Of a stretch of DNA of 17,640 nucleotides, positions 1 through 6,633 are shown piece by piece (within the stretch, counting starts at the first letter, position 1; each line of letters opens with the position of its first letter). The translations under genes and the position numbers were made by a program. Location: positions 1 to 17,640 of the forward strand of contig CAXTTL010000088.1 in assembly GCA_964247135.1 (NCBI GenBank), written 5' to 3'. The DNA is from an uncultured Deinococcales bacterium (lineage in GTDB: Bacteria; Deinococcota; Deinococci; Deinococcales; JAAFIG01). Below the pieces are notes generated by a model. That model was given only the letters and a program-made list of their open reading frames with translations. It had not been told where the DNA came from and ran no database searches.

Positions 1-308
1 GCATCCTTTTGGTCTTGAGGCAGCACGCCAAAAATGACGAACGACCGTATTCCCAACTTTATGCCTCGCTCGAGTTGCGGCAAGAATTCGTCAACGCTAA
101 ACCTCGAGATTCCTGGCAGCGCCCCAATGGGTTGAATGGTTTTTGAGCCTGGAACCACAAAAAACGGCGCGATAAAATCTTGAGGGCGCAAGACTGTTTC
201 CGCCACGGAATCGCGCAATGCCGCATTCGAGCGCAACCGTCTCGGACGTTGTAAAAGCTCGAGGGCTGATTCGAGCAAAATGCTGGGTCGTTCAGTTAAA
301 TCGTGCAT
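1..308 (-). CDS. hemB: Porphobilinogen synthase (delta-aminolevulinate dehydratase), N-terminal part; runs off the window edge
   Basis: Not in the ORF track; translated by hand from ATG at 308: MHDLTERPSILLESALELLQRPRRLRSNAALRDSVAETVLRPQDFIAPFFVVPG...LPGISRFSVDE...FGVLPQDQKD. Contains the RPRRLR...AET.L HemB N-terminal motif. GGAG SD at 314-317; overlaps the hemD stop. Confidence 0.95.
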   Translation of the reverse strand, partial: MHDLTERPSILLESALELLQRPRRLRSNAALRDSVAETVLRPQDFIAPFFVVPGSKTIQPIGALPGISRFSVDEFLPQLERGIKLGIRSFVIFGVLPQDQKD

Positions 309-984
309 TGATTCTCCGATCTTTTAAGGCTTCCAACACTTCGATCACCGCAGACATCTCCGGTTTTTGCGCAACCACGCAAGCCCAACCTCGAGCCAGG
401 ATGCTGGCAGCCGTGGTCTGACCCAGCGCCACCAAATCGGCAGCTCGAGCCACATTTTCTGGAATCACATTGACCGCGCTCGGACTCATCAAGACAATCG
501 CGTGATGCTCAAAACCCAGAACATCATCCCAAGAATTGGAGCGGGTTTGATACACCTCGAGAAACCGAACCTCGAGATTTGCCGCACGTAACGCTTTAGG
601 TAAGGTCATGAGTGAATGATCGCCGCCAATGACGGCAATCGGTGATTGGGGTTTGTACTCGAGGAATTCTTTGGCGAAACTGGCACTGTTGCCGCCGATA
701 GCCATAAACGCGACGTTCGCACCAGCTTGACGCAATGCCTGCGCCGTGGCGACACCCACCGCTGCCACTTTACGCCCGACCAAAACACCAGTTTGCTGTA
801 ATGCCTCAACCGCCGCGACGCTGGTAAAGAGCCACCATTCGCAGTCCATGATTGACTCGAGGTTGACGTTAGGGATTGCGCGAGTACGAACGAGCGGGTG
901 ATGCACCACCGAAAAACCGCGTTGCTCGAGAACGGTTTGCAAAATTTCAAAACGGTTGTTGGAATGGGTCAAAATCACGTTCAT
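292..984 (-). CDS. hemD: Uroporphyrinogen-III synthase
   Basis: Motifs FTSVAAVE, AAVGVATAQAL, EVYQT, MSPSAV, ALGQTTA. Start moved from 1143 to the ATG at 984, which forms an ATGA overlap with the hemC stop (981-983). Confidence 0.92.
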   Translation of the reverse strand: MNVILTHSNNRFEILQTVLEQRGFSVVHHPLVRTRAIPNVNLESIMDCEWWLFTSVAAVEALQQTGVLVGRKVAAVGVATAQALRQAGANVAFMAIGGNSASFAKEFLEYKPQSPIAVIGGDHSLMTLPKALRAANLEVRFLEVYQTRSNSWDDVLGFEHHAIVLMSPSAVNVIPENVARAADLVALGQTTAASILARGWACVVAQKPEMSAVIEVLEALKDRRINARFN

Positions 985-1874
985 GATTTCACCAACATGT
1001 TCTCTTGGACAATCTCGGAATGAATTTTGGCAATAACATCTTCGCTCGAGCCGTGGGCTTTGTAAAAACGCCCGCCGTACCAAGCCAACAACGACACGCC
1101 ATCCTCGAGTTTGACCGCACTTGCGCCGAGCGCCAATTGACAACCACCCTCGAGACGCGCCATCAAACCACGTTCGATTTTCACGGTTTCTCGAGCTTCA
1201 AGGTTGTCCAAGGTTTTCAGAAGCTCGAGCGTTTGCACATCGTCAGTACGACACTCGAGCGCCAGTGCACCCTGTCCTGGGGCGGGAACAAAAACTTCAG
1301 GCTCGAGCGTGATGACCTCTAAATCACTCAAATCCAAATTGAGGCGTTTCAAACCCGCCACCGCCAGCACAATCGCGTCGTAATCGCCACGCCGCAATTT
1401 TTCGACCCGGGTCGGTACGTTGCCACGCAATTCGCGCAACTCGAGGTCGGGACGCAAGGCATTCAGTTGGGCTTGACGACGAACCGCACTTGTCCCAACG
1501 CTTGCGCCCAAACGCACTGGAAGTTTCAAAGCGCTCGAGTCAAAAGCGTTTGGATTGATTAAAAGCATTTCTCGAGCATCTTCACGCGCTGGAATCGCGG
1601 CGATGGTCAGCCCTGGCGTGACGGCGCTCGGCAAATCCTTTAAGGAATGCACGGCAACATCTGCGCTTCCCTCGAGCACCGCCTCTTGCACCGCCTTGGT
1701 GAAAAAACCCTGCCCCAGCATGTTGCGAAACGCTGCCGATTCGCGGTCGCCTTGGGTTTCGATAATTTTCAGTTCAACGCTTCCACCGCAAAGCTCGAGT
1801 TGCAGCCGAACCCAATTGGCTTGCCACAACGCCAAAGCGCTGCCCCGCGTTGCAATCCGAATCTTATGCACCAA
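981..1874 (-). CDS. hemC: Hydroxymethylbilane synthase (porphobilinogen deaminase)
   Basis: IATRGSALALWQA, VHSLKDLP, GTSAVRR, LRGNVPTRVEKL, PAPGQGALA, EGGC cofactor cysteine. Start is TTG 1874 or GTG 1871, overlapping the hemA stop. Confidence 0.97.
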   Translation of the reverse strand: MVHKIRIATRGSALALWQANWVRLQLELCGGSVELKIIETQGDRESAAFRNMLGQGFFTKAVQEAVLEGSADVAVHSLKDLPSAVTPGLTIAAIPAREDAREMLLINPNAFDSSALKLPVRLGASVGTSAVRRQAQLNALRPDLELRELRGNVPTRVEKLRRGDYDAIVLAVAGLKRLNLDLSDLEVITLEPEVFVPAPGQGALALECRTDDVQTLELLKTLDNLEARETVKIERGLMARLEGGCQLALGASAVKLEDGVSLLAWYGGRFYKAHGSSEDVIAKIHSEIVQENMLVKS

Positions 1875-3060
1875 CCATCACCTGATCTTCTGGTTGAAAA
1901 TTCCCTCGAGCCAAACCCGCTTCATCCAAAAAAGAGTACGCCATTTCCAGACCGTGCGCTCGAGCCAAACCGCGCAAACCCTTGACCGGAATGTGCGCGA
2001 AACGGTGCGCCAAACGCGTGACATCTTCGGGCGCGAGCAAATCGCCCACCGTGCGTTCGATGGTTTGGCGGTAAACATCACGCAGTTGACTGATCGCCGC
2101 CCCCAAGGAGCGTTCGGCAAATTCGCCCAGCGCAAGCTCGAGTTCGCTGGCAACAATCATTTCGGCTTGCGCGAGAAGGGTTTGTAATTTTTCGCGCCGC
2201 GCATCGCCCAGTTTTTGCAATTGCGCCAGATCAATCAAACGCAGGTTTGAAGCTCGAGCGTCGGTTGGATTAACGTTGCGCGGCAAGCCCAAATCGACCA
2301 GGATTTCAAGGTTTTTTTGGGTCTCGAGAAAACTTGCATTGATGATGTTTTCGGCACCTGTCGCGCAGATGATGGCGTTGACTTGGGTTGAGCCTTGCAA
2401 AAAATCCTGTAACGCCATCGCTCGAGCATTGACGCTCAAAGCCAGATTTTCAGCACGCTCGAGGTTTCGATTCACAATCAACATTTCAAACCCTGAATCC
2501 GCGAGGCTTCTTGCCACCAACGCACCCATTTCACCCGCGCCCAAAATGGAAACTCGAGCGTTTCTGGGCAGTTTCTCGAGTTCTGGTCTCGCAAGGCTGA
2601 ACAAACTCGTGTTGGCTGGCGCGAGTGCAACCTCACGGCGCACACGTTTGGCAATGCGCAAGGCAGTGTTAAAAGCAAAACTGGTCGTCGAACCCACGCG
2701 CCCAGCCTTTCGCGCCGTTTCAAACGCGACCCGCACTTGGTTCATGATCTGATCCTCGCCAGGGTTGAGCGAATCGAGCGAAGCCGCCACCCGACACAAA
2801 TGCTCGAGCGCGGCATCCCCCAAAAAAGCATAACCTCGAGCTTCAGAACCCGCGATTTGCTGACGGATTTGCTCGAGGTTTGCCGTGTCATCGAGTGCCA
2901 ACACCAACTCGCAACGGTTGCAGGTTTGAAGGCTGACCAACTCGAGCACGCCTACTGGAAGGGGCTGCTCGAGCACACCAGTCAAGGTTTCAGTCCAGGC
3001 GGTGAGCGCATCCGCGCCGCCTCGTCGTCCAGAAACCCCAATCAGTGCCAGTCGTTCCAT
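1864..3060 (-). CDS. hemA: Glutamyl-tRNA reductase
   Basis: TCNRCE catalytic Cys motif, HLCRVAASLDSLNPGEDQI, GAGEMG Rossmann motif, NRNLERA, DLGLPRNV. Start placed at ATG 3060 (alternative ATG 3072) because the longer ORF would cover the promoter region. Confidence 0.95.
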   Translation of the reverse strand: MERLALIGVSGRRGGADALTAWTETLTGVLEQPLPVGVLELVSLQTCNRCELVLALDDTANLEQIRQQIAGSEARGYAFLGDAALEHLCRVAASLDSLNPGEDQIMNQVRVAFETARKAGRVGSTTSFAFNTALRIAKRVRREVALAPANTSLFSLARPELEKLPRNARVSILGAGEMGALVARSLADSGFEMLIVNRNLERAENLALSVNARAMALQDFLQGSTQVNAIICATGAENIINASFLETQKNLEILVDLGLPRNVNPTDARASNLRLIDLAQLQKLGDARREKLQTLLAQAEMIVASELELALGEFAERSLGAAISQLRDVYRQTIERTVGDLLAPEDVTRLAHRFAHIPVKGLRGLARAHGLEMAYSFLDEAGLARGNFQPEDQVMVGA

Positions 3061-3133: not shown

Positions 3134-3162
3134 TTGACTTCCAAGCTGAACAACATTATTGT
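3134..3162 (+). promoter_or_regulatory. Sigma70-type promoter for the NTase-Xre module (probably leaderless mRNA)
   Basis: TTGACT (3134-3139), 17-bp spacer, TATTGT (3157-3162), then 6 nt to GTG at 3169; no SD. Confidence 0.75.
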
Positions 3163-3169
3163 TGTTCAG
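3146..3169. promoter_or_regulatory. Palindromic operator over the -10 box, probably bound by the Xre protein
   Basis: CTGAACAACA-TTAT-TGTTGTTCAG, perfect 10-bp arms. Confidence 0.75.
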
Positions 3170-3621
3170 TGATTCCACCTTTCGACGAGCATGGAAACCT
3201 GCCCCCAGGTGAACACCCCTGCTCTTGGGACGAACTCGAGCATCGCTACGCCACCACCAGTCACCGAATCAACCTTTTAAACGGCTTGCAAGCGGCTTTG
3301 CACAACCTTCAAAGCGCTGGTTGCCGCACCGTTTGGATTGATGGCAGTTTTATCAGCGACAAAGCACAACCCAACGATTACGACGCCTGCTGGGATTCAG
3401 AAAACGTTGACCCAGATTTACTCGAGCCAACCCTGCTCAATTTTGCGCACCCTCGCAATGCCATGAAACGCAAATACCGAGGCGAATTGTTCATTGCCGA
3501 CCTACCCGCCACACCACACGGCGAAACCTTTCTGGATTTCTTTCAAAAAGACCGCAACGGCAACCCAAAAGGCATTCTCAGGCTCGACCTCTCGAGTTTA
3601 GCAACGCCAGAAAGGACGTGA
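3169..3621 (+). CDS. Minimal Pol-beta-superfamily nucleotidyltransferase-like protein (DUF6932-like), putative toxin/effector, 150 aa
   Basis: MIPPFDEHGNLPPGEH...WIDGSFISDKAQPNDYDACWD has the GS-x(8)-DxD nucleotidyltransferase motif. Start is GTG 3169; the upstream part of ORF 2737..3621 is antisense to hemA. Family name is from recall and needs an HMM check. Confidence 0.8.
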   Translation: MIPPFDEHGNLPPGEHPCSWDELEHRYATTSHRINLLNGLQAALHNLQSAGCRTVWIDGSFISDKAQPNDYDACWDSENVDPDLLEPTLLNFAHPRNAMKRKYRGELFIADLPATPHGETFLDFFQKDRNGNPKGILRLDLSSLATPERT

Positions 3622-3624
3622 ACC

Positions 3625-4020
3625 ATGATTCAGAACGAACATCAATACCGAATGACCAAAGCAGCCTTAAAGCGCTTTACGCTCGCCTTAAAAGAATATC
3701 AACCGAGTCCAAAACTTCATCCAAAACTTGCCACTGCCCAACGCGAAGCCTTTCGGGGACAGATCGATTCGCTCAAAGCCGAACTCGAGGAATTTGAACA
3801 ACTCAAACAAAATGCTTTGAATTTGGACACCGAACCGCTCGAGCGCATCGCTGAAAAACTCATTCAAGCTCGGGTTGCTCGTGGGTTCACACAAGCCGAA
3901 CTGGCGGCAAAACTCAAAATGAAACCGCAACAGATTCAACGTTACGAAGCGAGCAAATACGCCAGCGCCAGTCTTGCCAGGGTACTCGAGGTGGCACGGG
4001 TCTTACAAAACGCGAAGTAG
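3625..4020 (+). CDS. Xre/Cro-family HTH protein with N-terminal helical extension, putative antitoxin/autorepressor
   Basis: LIQARVARGFTQAELAAKLKMKPQQIQRYEASKY is an HTH_3 pattern. AGGA SD at 3613-3616; 3 nt after the upstream stop. Confidence 0.88.
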   Translation: MIQNEHQYRMTKAALKRFTLALKEYQPSPKLHPKLATAQREAFRGQIDSLKAELEEFEQLKQNALNLDTEPLERIAEKLIQARVARGFTQAELAAKLKMKPQQIQRYEASKYASASLARVLEVARVLQNAK

Positions 4021-4083
4021 TCTCGAGCTTCAGGTTTTGTTGCCCCTTGCCATCAAGCGAACTCGGGTTGTAAGGTTCGCACC

Positions 4084-5406
4084 GTGAACCCGAAACCAAA
4101 CACCACAACATCCAGTCAACTCTTCCAACGCGCCCAGCAAGTCATCCCTGGCGGCGTCAATTCTCCTGTGCGGGCTTTTGGTGCGGTGGGCGGCGTACCG
4201 AGGTTTATTGCCAAAGCCAATGGCTCGAGGATGTGGGACGAGGACGGCAACGAATTTGTGGATTACATCGGTTCGTGGGGTCCGATGATTCTTGGTCACG
4301 CACACCCAAAAGTGGCTGACGCGATTCGGCTGGCGCTCGAGGGTGGCACGAGTTTTGGAGCGCCCACAAAGCGCGAGATTGAACTTGCCGAGTTGGTCTT
4401 AAATGCCTACCCAAGCTGTGAGCGTGTGCGTTTTGTCTCGAGCGGGACTGAAGCCACCATGAGCGCTTTGCGGCTCGCTCGAGGGGTCACGGGTCGCAAG
4501 TACATTGTAAAATTCCGTGGAAATTACCACGGGCATTCGGATGGATTGTTGGTGCAGGCAGGTTCGGGCATGTTGACGGCATCTGGAGGCTCGAGCAACA
4601 GTGCGCCGAGCAGCGCTGGCGTACCAGCAGAATTTGCCAGCCTGACCTTGGTTGCCGATTACAACGTTCCTGAAACACTCGAGCAATTGTTTGCAAATTT
4701 TCCAGAGCAAATAGCCGCCGTGATTTTTGAACCCGTGGTCGGCAACGCGGGGCTGCTCGAGCCGACAGCAGCATTTTTAAAAAGCCTGCATGAACTTTGC
4801 AAAACCAATGGCACGCTGCTTATTGCCGATGAAGTCATGACCGGTTTTAGACTCTCACCAGGCGGCGCAACCCAACTTCTCAAACTCGAGCCTGACATTG
4901 TTTGCTGGGGTAAAATTATTGGCGGCGGCTTGCCCGTCGGAGCTTACGGTGCAAAGGCGAGCATCATGGATTTTGTCGCACCGAGCGGTCCTGTCTACCA
5001 AGCGGGAACACTTTCAGGCAACCCACTGGCGATGGCGGCAGGCATCGCCACCCTGACCGAACTCGCGCTCAACCCACCGTATGCACAACTCGAGGCTTAC
5101 GGAGCACAGTTGCAATCGGGGTTGGAACTGCTGGCGCTAGAAGCTGGCGTACCATTGACGGTCAACCGCGTCGGTTCAATGATGACGGCATTCTTTCAAG
5201 CTGGTGAAGTTCGGACGTACAACGATGCCGTGAAATCTGACACCGAAGCCTTCAAAGTGTTTTTCAACGCCATGCTCGAGCGCGGCGTGTACTTTCCTCC
5301 AAGTCAATTTGAAGCCGCATTCATCTCGAGCAAGCACGATCAAACCGACCTCGAGTTGACCTTGAATGCGGCGCGAGAAGCGTTAGGGGTTGTTGCAAGA
5401 GGTTAA
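4084..5406 (+). CDS. hemL: Glutamate-1-semialdehyde 2,1-aminomutase
   Basis: PGGVNSPVRAF, DYIGSWGPMILGH, SSGTEATM, DEVMTGFR, GKIIGGGLPVG (PLP lysine), YQAGTLSGNP. TAAGGT -10 box at 4071-4076, 7 nt before the GTG. Confidence 0.98.
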   Translation: MNPKPNTTTSSQLFQRAQQVIPGGVNSPVRAFGAVGGVPRFIAKANGSRMWDEDGNEFVDYIGSWGPMILGHAHPKVADAIRLALEGGTSFGAPTKREIELAELVLNAYPSCERVRFVSSGTEATMSALRLARGVTGRKYIVKFRGNYHGHSDGLLVQAGSGMLTASGGSSNSAPSSAGVPAEFASLTLVADYNVPETLEQLFANFPEQIAAVIFEPVVGNAGLLEPTAAFLKSLHELCKTNGTLLIADEVMTGFRLSPGGATQLLKLEPDIVCWGKIIGGGLPVGAYGAKASIMDFVAPSGPVYQAGTLSGNPLAMAAGIATLTELALNPPYAQLEAYGAQLQSGLELLALEAGVPLTVNRVGSMMTAFFQAGEVRTYNDAVKSDTEAFKVFFNAMLERGVYFPPSQFEAAFISSKHDQTDLELTLNAAREALGVVARG

Positions 5407-5414
5407 ATCTTGCT

Positions 5415-5801
5415 TTAAATATCTATTTGCTCTGATGATCTAATTTTTTGTTTGATTTCTCTATAGAAATTCAGTGTATCTCAAGGGTAAATAACGTAAC
5501 CTTGAAATTTTTCAGTAAAAGCAAATTTAACTTTGCGATTCGTAGTGATATAAATTTTTGAGATGGGAAGTACGGTTCTTGGGTCTGGGAAGGAGGTTTT
5601 ACTTGAAACAATATTCATTTTTTGATTATTGATGGAAAGAAAAAGAATTTCACTATATTTAATGAAATTCTGTTGATAATTTAGAAAATAGATACCAATA
5701 CCGTCTTTTTCTAGTTTATATCTGATAAGTATTTTATGGTAGCCAAACAGTGCAACGTATACATACAATACAAAAAATATCGTAACAAAAACTTCGCTCA
5801 T
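5415..5801 (-). pseudogene. AT-rich small membrane-anchored protein (TM helix plus possible bacterial PH-like domain) interrupted by an in-frame TGA at 5481-5483
   Basis: ATG at 5801 lies 1 nt after the permease stop. MSEVFVTIFFVLYVYVALFG TM segment. After the TGA the frame continues DTLNFYREIKQKIRSSEQIDI to TAA at 5415-5417, 8 bp from the hemL stop. Domain call is tentative. Confidence 0.6.
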
Positions 5802-5802
5802 A

Positions 5803-6633
5803 TCATAAATCTTTGCGTTCAAACAATGCCACGGCAGCCACAGCACACGCAATGGTGTACATCAAAAGTAAAATCAGGGATTGCTCGATCTTGAAATGAC
5901 TGGTGCGAATTGGTGAGTACGCATCCAAATGCTCAGTCAAGAGAAGGGGTTTAAGCCAAGTGAACACCGCCAAAAGCCGCATCAAAATAATACTGGCAAC
6001 GGTGGCGAGTGCGGCGGCGGCGGTGTTCATGTACAAAATGCCGAAGACAATCCCCAAACCTGCAATTGGGGACAGCACCAAACCCGCAATCAAATAGGCT
6101 CGAACCAACTCGAACAACGCGGTCATCGGCTCGAGGTTGCCAATGCCGTTAAAACCGCCCTCGGCAAGTCCTGTGCCGCCAAAAAAACTGCCAAAACCGA
6201 AGCGAAGCCCACCAATCAACAAACTGCTGAGCAAAGTTACCAGCAGCAGCATGAGCGGGTAGAGCACCGCAACAAACAGTTTGGAGAGGGCAATGCGGGT
6301 TCTCGAGACAGGTCGGAGCAACAAGGGCGCGAGTGTCCCCCAGGCAACCTCACCCCCGACAATTTCGGCACAGGTCACGGCGACCAGCAAGGGCAGCAAA
6401 AAGGGCATGACGATAAACAGCGTCAAGCCTGGAACTTGCCAGCCAGACACCAGAATCAGGTTTGCACCGACCACCTGCGACAAGCCGTCGTCGGGCGCGA
6501 AAATCAGCAAAATCGGAATAAAAAACGCCACGATCAAACCAAGGCGCACGCTGCGAAAACCGATCAATTTGCGAAACTCGAGTTGCAACAACCCGTAACC
6601 AGAACCTGGCAGTTTGATGTTTGCTTGTGTCAT
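5803..6633 (-). CDS. ABC-2-type exporter permease
   Basis: About six TM segments; [25 protein letters not shown] motif; C-terminal FERKDL; ATGA overlap with the ATPase stop. Confidence 0.92.

Follow-up and report, generated by a model that had tools for sequence, protein, structure and literature searches.

Nucleotidyltransferases (NTases) take different parts in bacterial toxin–antitoxin (TA) and abortive-infection pairs: minimal nucleotidyltransferases (MNTs) are antitoxins that AMPylate their HEPN partners, and the AbiEii/MenT enzymes are toxins with tRNA-modifying activity. A further system, RosmerTA, which Millman et al. are said to have described in 2022, reportedly consists of an upstream toxin-like gene followed by a gene encoding an Xre-type helix-turn-helix (HTH) domain fused to an ImmA/IrrE peptidase. 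Here we describe a two-gene module at positions 3134–4020 of a 17,640-nucleotide (nt) stretch of DNA, referred to as a whole as the window, from an uncultured Deinococcales bacterium (assembly GCA_964247135.1, contig CAXTTL010000088.1), in which a small gene of the Pfam family DUF6932 (gene 1) is followed by a gene for an Xre-HTH protein (gene 2).

Among described systems, PD-lambda-2 (Vassallo et al. 2022; PMC9519451) comprises, according to the parts of that report drawn on here, a HigB-like A protein, an Xre-peptidase B protein and a P4-antitoxin-like C protein, and defends against lambda-vir. Excerpts of three further reports concern related operons: RmrA partners with different toxins (PMC10440598), Xre-COG2856 operons have an upstream toxin of RelE or PIN type (PMC2701414), and Tn7 cargo includes ImmA more often than any other TA component (PMC8649781).

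Our analyses confirm the pair and show it to be a conserved, TA-like module whose family has been catalogued but not studied. The explanation we prefer, at a probability of roughly 60%, is that it represents a type II TA-like module that is mobile and regulates itself, with an NTase-like toxin, and that its position among heme biosynthesis genes is incidental.

The gene pair and its conservation

The module has the following features, all but the palindrome assigned to the plus strand:

3134–3139, plus strand: -35 hexamer TTGACT, from a promoter scan
3157–3162, plus strand: -10 hexamer TATTGT, from a promoter scan, inside the loop and right arm of the palindrome
3146–3169, no strand assigned: perfect palindrome CTGAACAACA-ttat-TGTTGTTCAG, presumed operator for the gene-2 HTH, from an inverted-repeat scan
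3169–3621, plus strand: gene 1, GTG start, TGA stop, 150 residues, DUF6932
3343–3384, plus strand: putative catalytic motif G59-S60-F61-x8-D70-Y71-D72 of gene 1, from conservation in 40 homologues and the structural model
3625–4020, plus strand: gene 2, ATG start, TAG stop, 131 residues, helical hairpin followed by an Xre HTH
3625–3819, plus strand: N-terminal helical hairpin of gene 2 (residues 1–65), predicted DUF6932-binding and neutralising domain, from the AlphaFold2 model, the complex model and conservation
3850–4008, plus strand: Xre/Cro-type HTH of gene 2 (about residues 76–128), presumed operator-binding, from HTH_3, profile and conservation

The longest open reading frame (ORF) enclosing gene 1 begins at 2737, an extension that overlaps hemA on the opposite strand; we place the start at 3169 because the ATG and GTG starts of relatives align there. 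The genes are 3 nt apart (3622–3624), the gap reported in the initial annotation of this DNA.

With the family alignment as query, 375 loci were confirmed in genomes, and the best 80 were surveyed (handles of the form L001). They come from Deinococcales, Dehalococcoidia and other Chloroflexota, Cyanobacteria, Alpha-, Beta- and Gammaproteobacteria, Acidobacteriota, Armatimonadota, Actinomycetota and others. By tblastn, 77 of the 80 have a full-length gene-2 homologue as the next gene downstream, in the same orientation; each of the three misses was resolved by reading the ORFs. One encodes a normal homologue with N-domain and HTH (L021; HTH_3, E-value 1.1e-11), another has the N-domain fused to the ribbon-helix-helix (RHH) domain RHH_5 (7.9e-07), which replaces the HTH (L013), and the last is a 71-residue ORF consisting of the N-domain alone (L012). 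It follows from these three that the N-terminal hairpin is the constant partner of DUF6932, and that the DNA-binding domain can be swapped. A gene-2-type N-domain adjoins DUF6932 in 80/80 loci, the consistent pairing characteristic of TA systems, and the co-occurrence that the initial annotation had proposed to examine by a neighbourhood survey was found in all of these loci.

Partners of DUF6932 in the 80 loci include 70 short HTH forms and eight long ones. Of the 76 loci in which both starts can be placed, 64 show a 4-nt overlap between the two genes. When the window pair was compared with three Deinococcales copies, nonsynonymous differences per site (pN) were 0.10–0.19 and synonymous differences (pS) were saturated at 0.63–0.79; the corresponding rate ratio (dN/dS), where computable, was 0.04–0.14, and 0.06–0.14 for gene 1. 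By these measures both genes are under strong purifying selection, which, with the overlap, indicates that both are functional. At one locus (L006, 4001–4438) the gene 1 homologue has a single in-frame stop at codon 47 and the gene 2 homologue is intact; this gene 1 is either a pseudogene or an assembly error, and as a single case it fits a polarity in which gene 1 is the toxic partner.

Promoter and operator

The sole sigma-70-like site between 2950 and 4200 is TTGACT/TATTGT with a spacer of 17 nt (shuffled sequences gave a mean of 0.4), and so the claim that the module has its own -35 and -10 elements is borne out. Overlapping the -10 element and the first base of gene 1 is the palindrome, likewise foreseen as an operator, the arms of which (CTGAACAACA, 3146–3155, and TGTTGTTCAG, 3160–3169) comprise 10+10 nt with 100% complementarity around a 4-nt loop; its role as operator is presumed. 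The -10 element ends 6 nt before the GTG, and the last base of the palindrome is the G of that start codon. Within the palindrome is a strict core, ACAAC-ATTATT-GTTGT, of the form ACAAC-N6-GTTGT.

This arrangement is widely conserved. The core ACAA[CT]-N6-[AG]TTGT occurs within 50 nt before the start of gene 1 in 62 of 81 loci, 56 of these cores ending 3–4 nt before the start codon, as against three occurrences in the remaining 638,855 nt, and most of the 19 loci lacking it have a version with one mismatch at the same spot. In 63 of 78 cases the 60 nt ahead of the start contain a perfect inverted repeat with CAA in it, and 54 of the 63 end between -1 and +5 nt from the start codon. In 44 of the 63 loci with a perfect palindrome, TTGAC precedes the palindrome centre by 23–27 nt; the loop is A/T-rich and -10-like, giving the same geometry as in the window. 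With the start codon about 6–7 nt after the -10 element, we infer that gene 1 is translated from a leaderless mRNA; transcripts without a leader are frequent in Deinococcus. Pairing, 4-nt overlap and operator thus recur across phyla more than chance would give, and an operator at the promoter combined with an HTH protein as candidate antitoxin is the arrangement expected of type II TA systems. Gene content, pairing, coupling, the domain swap, operator conservation and the signature of purifying selection are direct observations.

In four cyanobacterial loci with long partners (L004, L009, L018 and L041), the operator is present as two tandem copies instead of one (for example CACAACAAAAAAGTTGTG twice, about 30 nt apart), upstream of position 4001 (L009, L018, L041) or 3104 (L004). 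By eye, hemL of the window is possibly leaderless too: TTGCCA, 18 nt, TAAGGT and 7 nt precede the GTG at 4084 (window 4047–4086), although the putative -10 TAAGGT is too weak to reach the threshold of the promoter scan.

Gene 1: the DUF6932 family

Gene 1 matches DUF6932 (PF22014) over the complete model (1–142 of 142) with an E-value of 9.7e-43 and 146.4 bits, compared to a cut-off of 27; the match spans residues 3–140, and this family was among those put forward at the outset. It also matches the PADLOC candidate model PDC-M63A at 1.3e-15 (1.3e-15 to 5e-8 for gene 1 and homologues together). NCBIfam has no family for gene 1 and a literature search for 'DUF6932' found no paper; its only catalogue entries are Pfam DUF6932 and PADLOC candidate PDC-M63A. 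A word-indexed search recovered 137 homologues, and a profile search of 1.84 billion cluster representatives recovered 5,230 (50%-identity clusters) at E<=0.001. Almost all profile matches are of 140–155 residues. Eight longer matches were scanned and contain no second Pfam domain, being probably over-called starts, and a search for fused forms produced one longer protein. No second, substrate-binding domain was seen in gene 1 by Pfam, in the model or among longer members.

Three lines of evidence bear on the fold. The Pol-beta NTase signature is hG[GS]-x(9-13)-Dh[DE]h with a third carboxylate on a following strand. Among 40 homologues, G59, D70 and D72 are invariant, as is K134-G135-I136, S60 is at least 90% conserved, and position 106 is E or D in most aligned members by eye. 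An AlphaFold2 model built on this 40-sequence alignment is alpha/beta with high confidence (pLDDT 92.6, pTM 0.87); strand 54–58 is followed by G59-S60 at the start of a helix, D70/D72 head strand 72–75, and the acidic E106 lies on strand 106–109. Gene 1 therefore has each element of the signature, from G59-S60, D70, D72 and the acidic residue 106 to the placement of strand and helix. The GSF...DYD motif was reported before and is intact, the spacer being x8 rather than the x7 then given. Foldseek returned a list of weak matches rich in Pol-beta-type enzymes (MNT, HI0073, AadA, ANT, AAD(9), pol mu/lambda/beta and CCA-adding enzyme), headed in the PDB by an MNT antitoxin (8xeo_B) with a non-significant E-value of 0.26 and a query-normalised score (TMq) of 0.35. 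Feature neighbours in the ESM Atlas that were shown with a Pfam family all belong to NTP_transf_2/Polbeta, at scores of 0.82–0.84, which fall below the 0.9 mark and are a lead only. The motif, with these sub-threshold fold and feature matches, points weakly to an NTase fold, and we regard gene 1 as probably 'NTase-like'.

Gene 2: hairpin and HTH domain

Gene 2 was described as about 70 helical residues followed by an Xre HTH, and both parts are recovered. HTH_3 matches residues 80–128 (E-value 4.4e-10), and the AlphaFold2 model (pLDDT 91.4) has helices at 5–23 and 33–62, followed by a five-helix HTH. The first 75 or so residues match no Pfam family above the curated cut-off. In 40 homologues, M1, I2 and N4 of the hairpin are invariant and Q7 and Y8 nearly so; in the recognition region of the HTH, Q102, Q103, Q105, Y107 and E108 are invariant, which fits the invariant core of the operator.

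Relatives of gene 2 are known for the HTH part. They include 434 Cro (7.5e-05 by profile), EDF1/MBF1 and the solved HigA 6af3_B (0.0041), and all sequence and fold matches in the PDB lie on the HTH, the weak HigA match alone reaching back to profile position 42. Foldseek found no counterpart of the hairpin at E<=0.001. No longer proteins sharing the N-domain of the window protein (residues 1–70) were found by a word-based search, which is weak evidence. PADLOC RmrA models match gene 2 over their HTH alone, and there is no M78 peptidase in the window protein, which ends after the HTH. Kinship with HigA was considered and rejected: hhalign against the bona fide HigA next to L013 gave a probability of 0.2, and because no similarity was detected, 'HigA-like' is a valid description of the HTH and layout only. 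That HigA belongs to a separate HigB/HigA pair, which in this cyanobacterial locus (L013; 4438–4911, 4982–5657) lies on the other strand immediately downstream of the RHH-bearing partner of DUF6932.

The predicted complex

Structure prediction of the complex, proposed earlier as a check, favours binding. The model of gene 1 with gene 2 has an interface score (ipSAE) of 0.75 (0.75, 0.77 and 0.75 between runs), compared to 0.46 for the best of three controls. Of 157 solved complexes 116 reach the pass mark, as do 2 of 215 mismatched pairs; these counts apply roughly here, where our own alignments were used. Contact agreement among runs is at least 95%, and pLDDT of the partners is at least 86. 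The predicted interface joins gene-2 residues 2–52 to gene-1 residues 66–131, and the conserved gene-2 tyrosines Y8, Y57 and Y107 are outside it. The complex, like the fold of gene 1, is a prediction, and as such supports direct binding of gene 1 by the N-terminal hairpin of gene 2.

Long relatives, plasmids and known systems

Homologues of gene 2 with 480–488 residues occur at eight of the 80 loci (L004, L008, L009, L010, L018, L041, L068 and L080). In four of five long partners scanned, the HTH is followed by Peptidase_M78 (ImmA/IrrE, PF06114), and PADLOC, applied to three, identified RmrA over the peptidase region in L009 and over the HTH only in L008 and L080. In five of the long-form loci (L004, L010, L018, L041 and L068) an ORF of about 335 residues without a Pfam match at 1e-5 follows some 600–700 nt after gene 2; in L009 the downstream ORF has a DUF4186 domain, and on a Tolypothrix plasmid DUF4186 is encoded by a gene of its own situated in between. 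The recurrent ORF may be a third component of the long-form systems.

Gene-1 homologues are present in 32 plasmid records, three of which were inspected. The partner on the Tolypothrix plasmid is a 487-residue 'XRE family' protein. On the Acinetobacter plasmid the pair comes directly after tnsE of a Tn7-like element, with a partner annotated as ImmA/IrrE, and on the Agrobacterium plasmid it follows a cluster of AAA-ATPase, helicase and reverse-transcriptase genes and precedes a 'beta family protein'. The Acinetobacter and Agrobacterium partners match PADLOC PD-Lambda-2_B at 7e-78 and 9e-74, and the third Agrobacterium gene is Pfam Beta_protein (1.4e-70); this plasmid relative (L083) accordingly has B and C components, with DUF6932 occupying the A slot. 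Over residues 1–127 the Acinetobacter partner can be aligned with the gene-2 profile (hhalign probability 91.9%, E-value 7e-7), so that gene 2 of the window corresponds to the N-terminal part of a PD-Lambda-2_B-type protein.

In the Acinetobacter pittii plasmid locus (L082, 3956–7846), DUF6932 and the PD-Lambda-2_B-type partner stand directly after tnsD/tnsE, and the Beta_protein gene that follows is a 66-residue fragment only, beside an IS30 transposase and blaNDM-1.

Genomic position

The module separates two divergent genes, which are flanks and not part of it:

1864–3060, minus strand: hemA (glutamyl-tRNA reductase), GlutR_N 1.8e-25, Shikimate_DH 5.8e-22
4084–5406, plus strand: hemL-type class-III aminotransferase, Aminotran_3 1.7e-74

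Coordinates and Pfam domains agree with the earlier description of a divergent hemA/hemL pair split by the module. The Pfam scan adds hemC and hemD beyond hemA, which form a hemD-hemC-hemA run on the minus strand (292–3060). That the module was 'inserted' into this cluster is the most we can propose from its position. Neither convincing flanking direct repeats nor a jump in composition of the kind expected at an insertion were found at the window module: its guanine-plus-cytosine content (GC) is slightly lower than that of the flanks (0.48–0.51 vs 0.55–0.58), and its density of the hexamer CTCGAG (6.6–7.6 per kb) equals the window average of 6.9; hence it did not arrive recently, or came from a close relative.

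The neighbours of the pair were surveyed by taking the largest ORF on each side in 55 loci and scanning the first 104 of 146 ORFs. By our own reading, a defence or mobility gene is the nearest large neighbour in 15 of the 55, the list comprising HNH, Fic, HsdM, integrase, IstB, AbiEii with DUF2397, Mrr, serine recombinases, Cas3 (twice), ResIII and UvrD helicases and ResT. Five Dehalococcoidia loci share a single context, with Metallophos-GNAT upstream and COX2 downstream. A scattered distribution with some loci in islands is typical of TA modules. At one locus (L020, 5742–6689) a genuine AbiEii toxin gene (315 residues, 2.5e-47) lies about 900 nt downstream of the DUF6932 pair, with DUF2397 upstream, a setting like that of a defence island.

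Two further features of the window are recorded here. CTCGAG occurs 122 times in 17.6 kb, compared to 2.9 expected from shuffled sequences (maximum 7), the next most frequent palindromic hexamer occurring 18 times; 67 of 111 genic copies are in frame as CTC-GAG (Leu-Glu). Its density is 4.7–7.8 per kb in three loci from Deinococcales metagenome-assembled genomes (MAGs; L001–L003), as against 0–0.8 in five loci from other phyla, and it looks like a lineage-specific highly iterated palindrome. A literature text search found no paper combining 'highly iterated palindrom' with CTCGAG. Between hemL and an ABC-2 permease gene there is an AT-rich island (5407–5850) with a GC of 0.28, compared to 0.53 for the window, and no CTCGAG; it holds a minus-strand ORF of 123 residues (5481–5852) without a Pfam match, and is probably foreign or recently acquired DNA.

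A model for the module and its alternatives

Under the preferred explanation, a TA-like module with an NTase-like toxin, gene 1 would be a minimal enzyme with a probable Pol-beta-type core, candidate catalytic residues being G59/S60, D70, D72 and E106, and would act as a growth-inhibiting effector. The N-terminal hairpin of gene 2 is predicted to clamp gene 1 and would thereby neutralise it, while the HTH would bind the ACAAC-N6-GTTGT palindrome over the -10 element and start codon of the leaderless transcript and shut off the operon. If gene 2 were lost, whether by degradation or in response to phage or stress, the enzyme would be set free and repression of the operon lifted. The initial annotation had proposed a toxin-first NTase-Xre TA or defence pair, and of this the conserved TA-like anatomy and the position of the NTase-like gene ahead of its partner stand, while the NTase fold itself is weakly supported.

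Several results weigh against this explanation. As to the fold, Foldseek of the gene 1 model found nothing at E<=0.001 in the PDB or BFVD, a PDB sequence search with the gene 1 profile gave nothing meaningful (best E-value 0.6), and the NTP_transf Pfam models, including the NTP_transf_2 put forward at the outset, match none of 40 DUF6932 members at E<=10; these searches, then, gave no significant sequence or structural similarity to established NTases. In the complex, the putative catalytic residues 59–60, 70, 72 and 106 are not in the predicted interface, and for this reason neutralisation by occlusion of the active site is not indicated. With regard to distribution, all 80 surveyed loci are at least 47% identical to gene 1, so that three plasmid loci are the entire sample of the distant family; no gene-1 homologue was found in 50,697 phage records; and neighbours other than those of defence or mobility type are metabolic or of no assigned kind, a housekeeping majority. 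Toxicity, catalysis, substrate, DNA binding and the leaderless start are, moreover, all features that we infer. Excerpts of two reports add to these points: B of PD-lambda-2 was, unexpectedly, toxic alone and was rescued by A (PMC9519451), and deletion of PDC-M63AB in E. coli NILS69, challenged with 10 phages in the one test reported for it, gave no defence phenotype (PMC12409345).

The toxicity of PD-lambda-2 B raises the question of whether roles in the present family are reversed or non-toxic. The long-form gene 2 would then be the dangerous partner by virtue of its peptidase, DUF6932 would be its keeper or modifier, in a manner resembling MNT acting on HEPN, and the short form would be a harmless regulatory remnant or a regulator-enzyme pair. 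The PD-Lambda-2_B matches of long DUF6932 partners speak for such an arrangement, as does the fact that MNT antitoxins, although not significant, lead the structural matches of gene 1; yet the window gene 2 has no peptidase, and 70 of the 80 partners are short while both genes retain purifying selection, the 4-nt overlap and the operator. Invariance of the putative catalytic motif also speaks against reversal, as does the placement of this motif and of the conserved gene-2 tyrosines outside the modelled interface, and the A slot of related operons holds the toxin folds HigB, RelE and PIN in the excerpts available. For the short form, reversed polarity is less likely because a peptidase is absent, and it stays alive for long forms through PD-lambda-2; on balance we judge it unlikely.

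Gene 1 might instead be a housekeeping or resistance nucleotidyltransferase, modifying for example a small molecule, under the control of an Xre repressor and with no role in addiction or defence. The weak fold matches to AadA, AAD(9) and ANT(4'') would be in keeping with this, but their E-values are 0.85 or higher over some 50 residues, and gene 1 does not have the second, substrate-binding domain. Many loci do lie among metabolic genes, and the common context of the five Dehalococcoidia loci suggests stable vertical residence. However, the regulator is predicted to bind the enzyme, which is typical of TA and not of repressor-enzyme operons; L013 exchanges the HTH for an RHH and keeps the N-domain; and the long forms are of RosmerTA/PD-lambda-2 type, with the pair found on plasmids and as Tn7 cargo. 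We consider a housekeeping or resistance function very improbable.

The initial annotation had also speculated that a tRNA-modifying NTase here could be functionally linked to heme synthesis, while allowing that the position may be incidental. On such a reading the NTase would modify tRNA-Glu, or otherwise tune HemA/HemL, and would have joined the heme cluster to that end. The single ground for this is where the pair lies, between hemA and hemL, together with the finding of no plus-strand terminator-like site between 4020 and 4084 in the terminator scan, so that read-through from the module promoter into hemL is possible. Against it, hemA, hemC, hemD and hemL are beside the pair in 0/80 related loci, the one match of the search being a 28%-identical class-III aminotransferase 3 kb away in L009, and the three closest copies (74–84% identical, Deinococcales MAGs) adjoin CorA, an AddB-like gene and an ABC transporter. 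A heme link is close to refuted, and the position between hemA and hemL appears incidental.

Significance of the DUF6932 module

Returning to the TA-like module with an NTase-like toxin, a broader proposal can be made tentatively, although we rate it as somewhat doubtful. DUF6932 would be a new, very widespread class of minimal NTase effector of 150 residues, nucleotidylating an RNA end or a protein and inhibited by the hairpin, and would serve as the killing or arrest module both in short TA pairs and in PD-lambda-2/Rosmer-type systems; the superimposed operator, -10 element and leaderless start would have been kept from Deinococcota to Cyanobacteria and Proteobacteria. Since these three elements coincide, one repressor dimer would block transcription of a message that is free of a ribosome-binding site.

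If gene 1 is an active toxin, then DUF6932 would be a third and much smaller NTase lineage in TA and defence, beside MNT and AbiEii/MenT, and the pair, with only two genes, would offer a tractable way into the Xre-ImmA systems (RosmerTA, PD-lambda-2), which are poorly understood; in the short form, binding and repression are separated from the peptidase. The conserved promoter/operator with its presumed leaderless start is a ready-made, testable regulatory unit. For genome annotation, the pair should be treated as a passenger in the heme cluster and not as a heme gene.

Comparison with known systems

Like MNT, gene 1 is small and has a GS...DxD motif, and MNT antitoxins are its top (non-significant) structural neighbours; in contrast to MNT-HEPN pairs, the partner is an N-domain protein in every surveyed locus, gene 1 has no NTP_transf_2 sequence match, and no HEPN domain is present among the 17 window proteins scanned with Pfam, as the initial annotation had it. 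AbiEii/MenT provide a precedent for an NTase as the toxin of a TA or abortive-infection pair. Such proteins match the AbiEii family model and have about 230–300 residues, whereas gene 1 and 40 homologues have no AbiEii match at E<=10, its 150 residues are about half of the 315 in the AbiEii protein of L020, and the partner is of another type.

With HigBA the module shares a presumed toxin-first order, a candidate HTH antitoxin, small coupled genes and a palindromic operator over the promoter, and HigA 6af3_B is among the weak HTH matches of gene 2; unlike HigBA, gene 1 does not have the RelE/HigB fold and the gene-2 hairpin is unlike HigA. The PADLOC candidate PDC-M63 is alike in its first component, PDC-M63A, which gene 1 and its homologues match; none of the partners tested matched its second, PDC-M63B, and the module is a tentative member of this two-gene candidate.

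The closest resemblance is to PD-lambda-2 and RosmerTA, in which a small gene likewise comes first and an HTH protein second. Relatives of gene 2 carry M78 and match RmrA or PD-Lambda-2_B, and the Agrobacterium relative has the full triad. In the window, by comparison, the antitoxin candidate is without the Zn-peptidase of RosmerTA, and the locus has two genes where PD-lambda-2 has three, the Beta protein being absent. Gene 1 is DUF6932, not HigB-like, and matches PDC-M63A and no PD-Lambda-2_A model; and in PD-lambda-2 it was the B protein that was the toxic part, according to the excerpted report (PMC9519451). Judged by these sequence relationships, the module appears to be a peptidase-less variant of the RosmerTA/PD-lambda-2 kind, with an NTase-like first gene.

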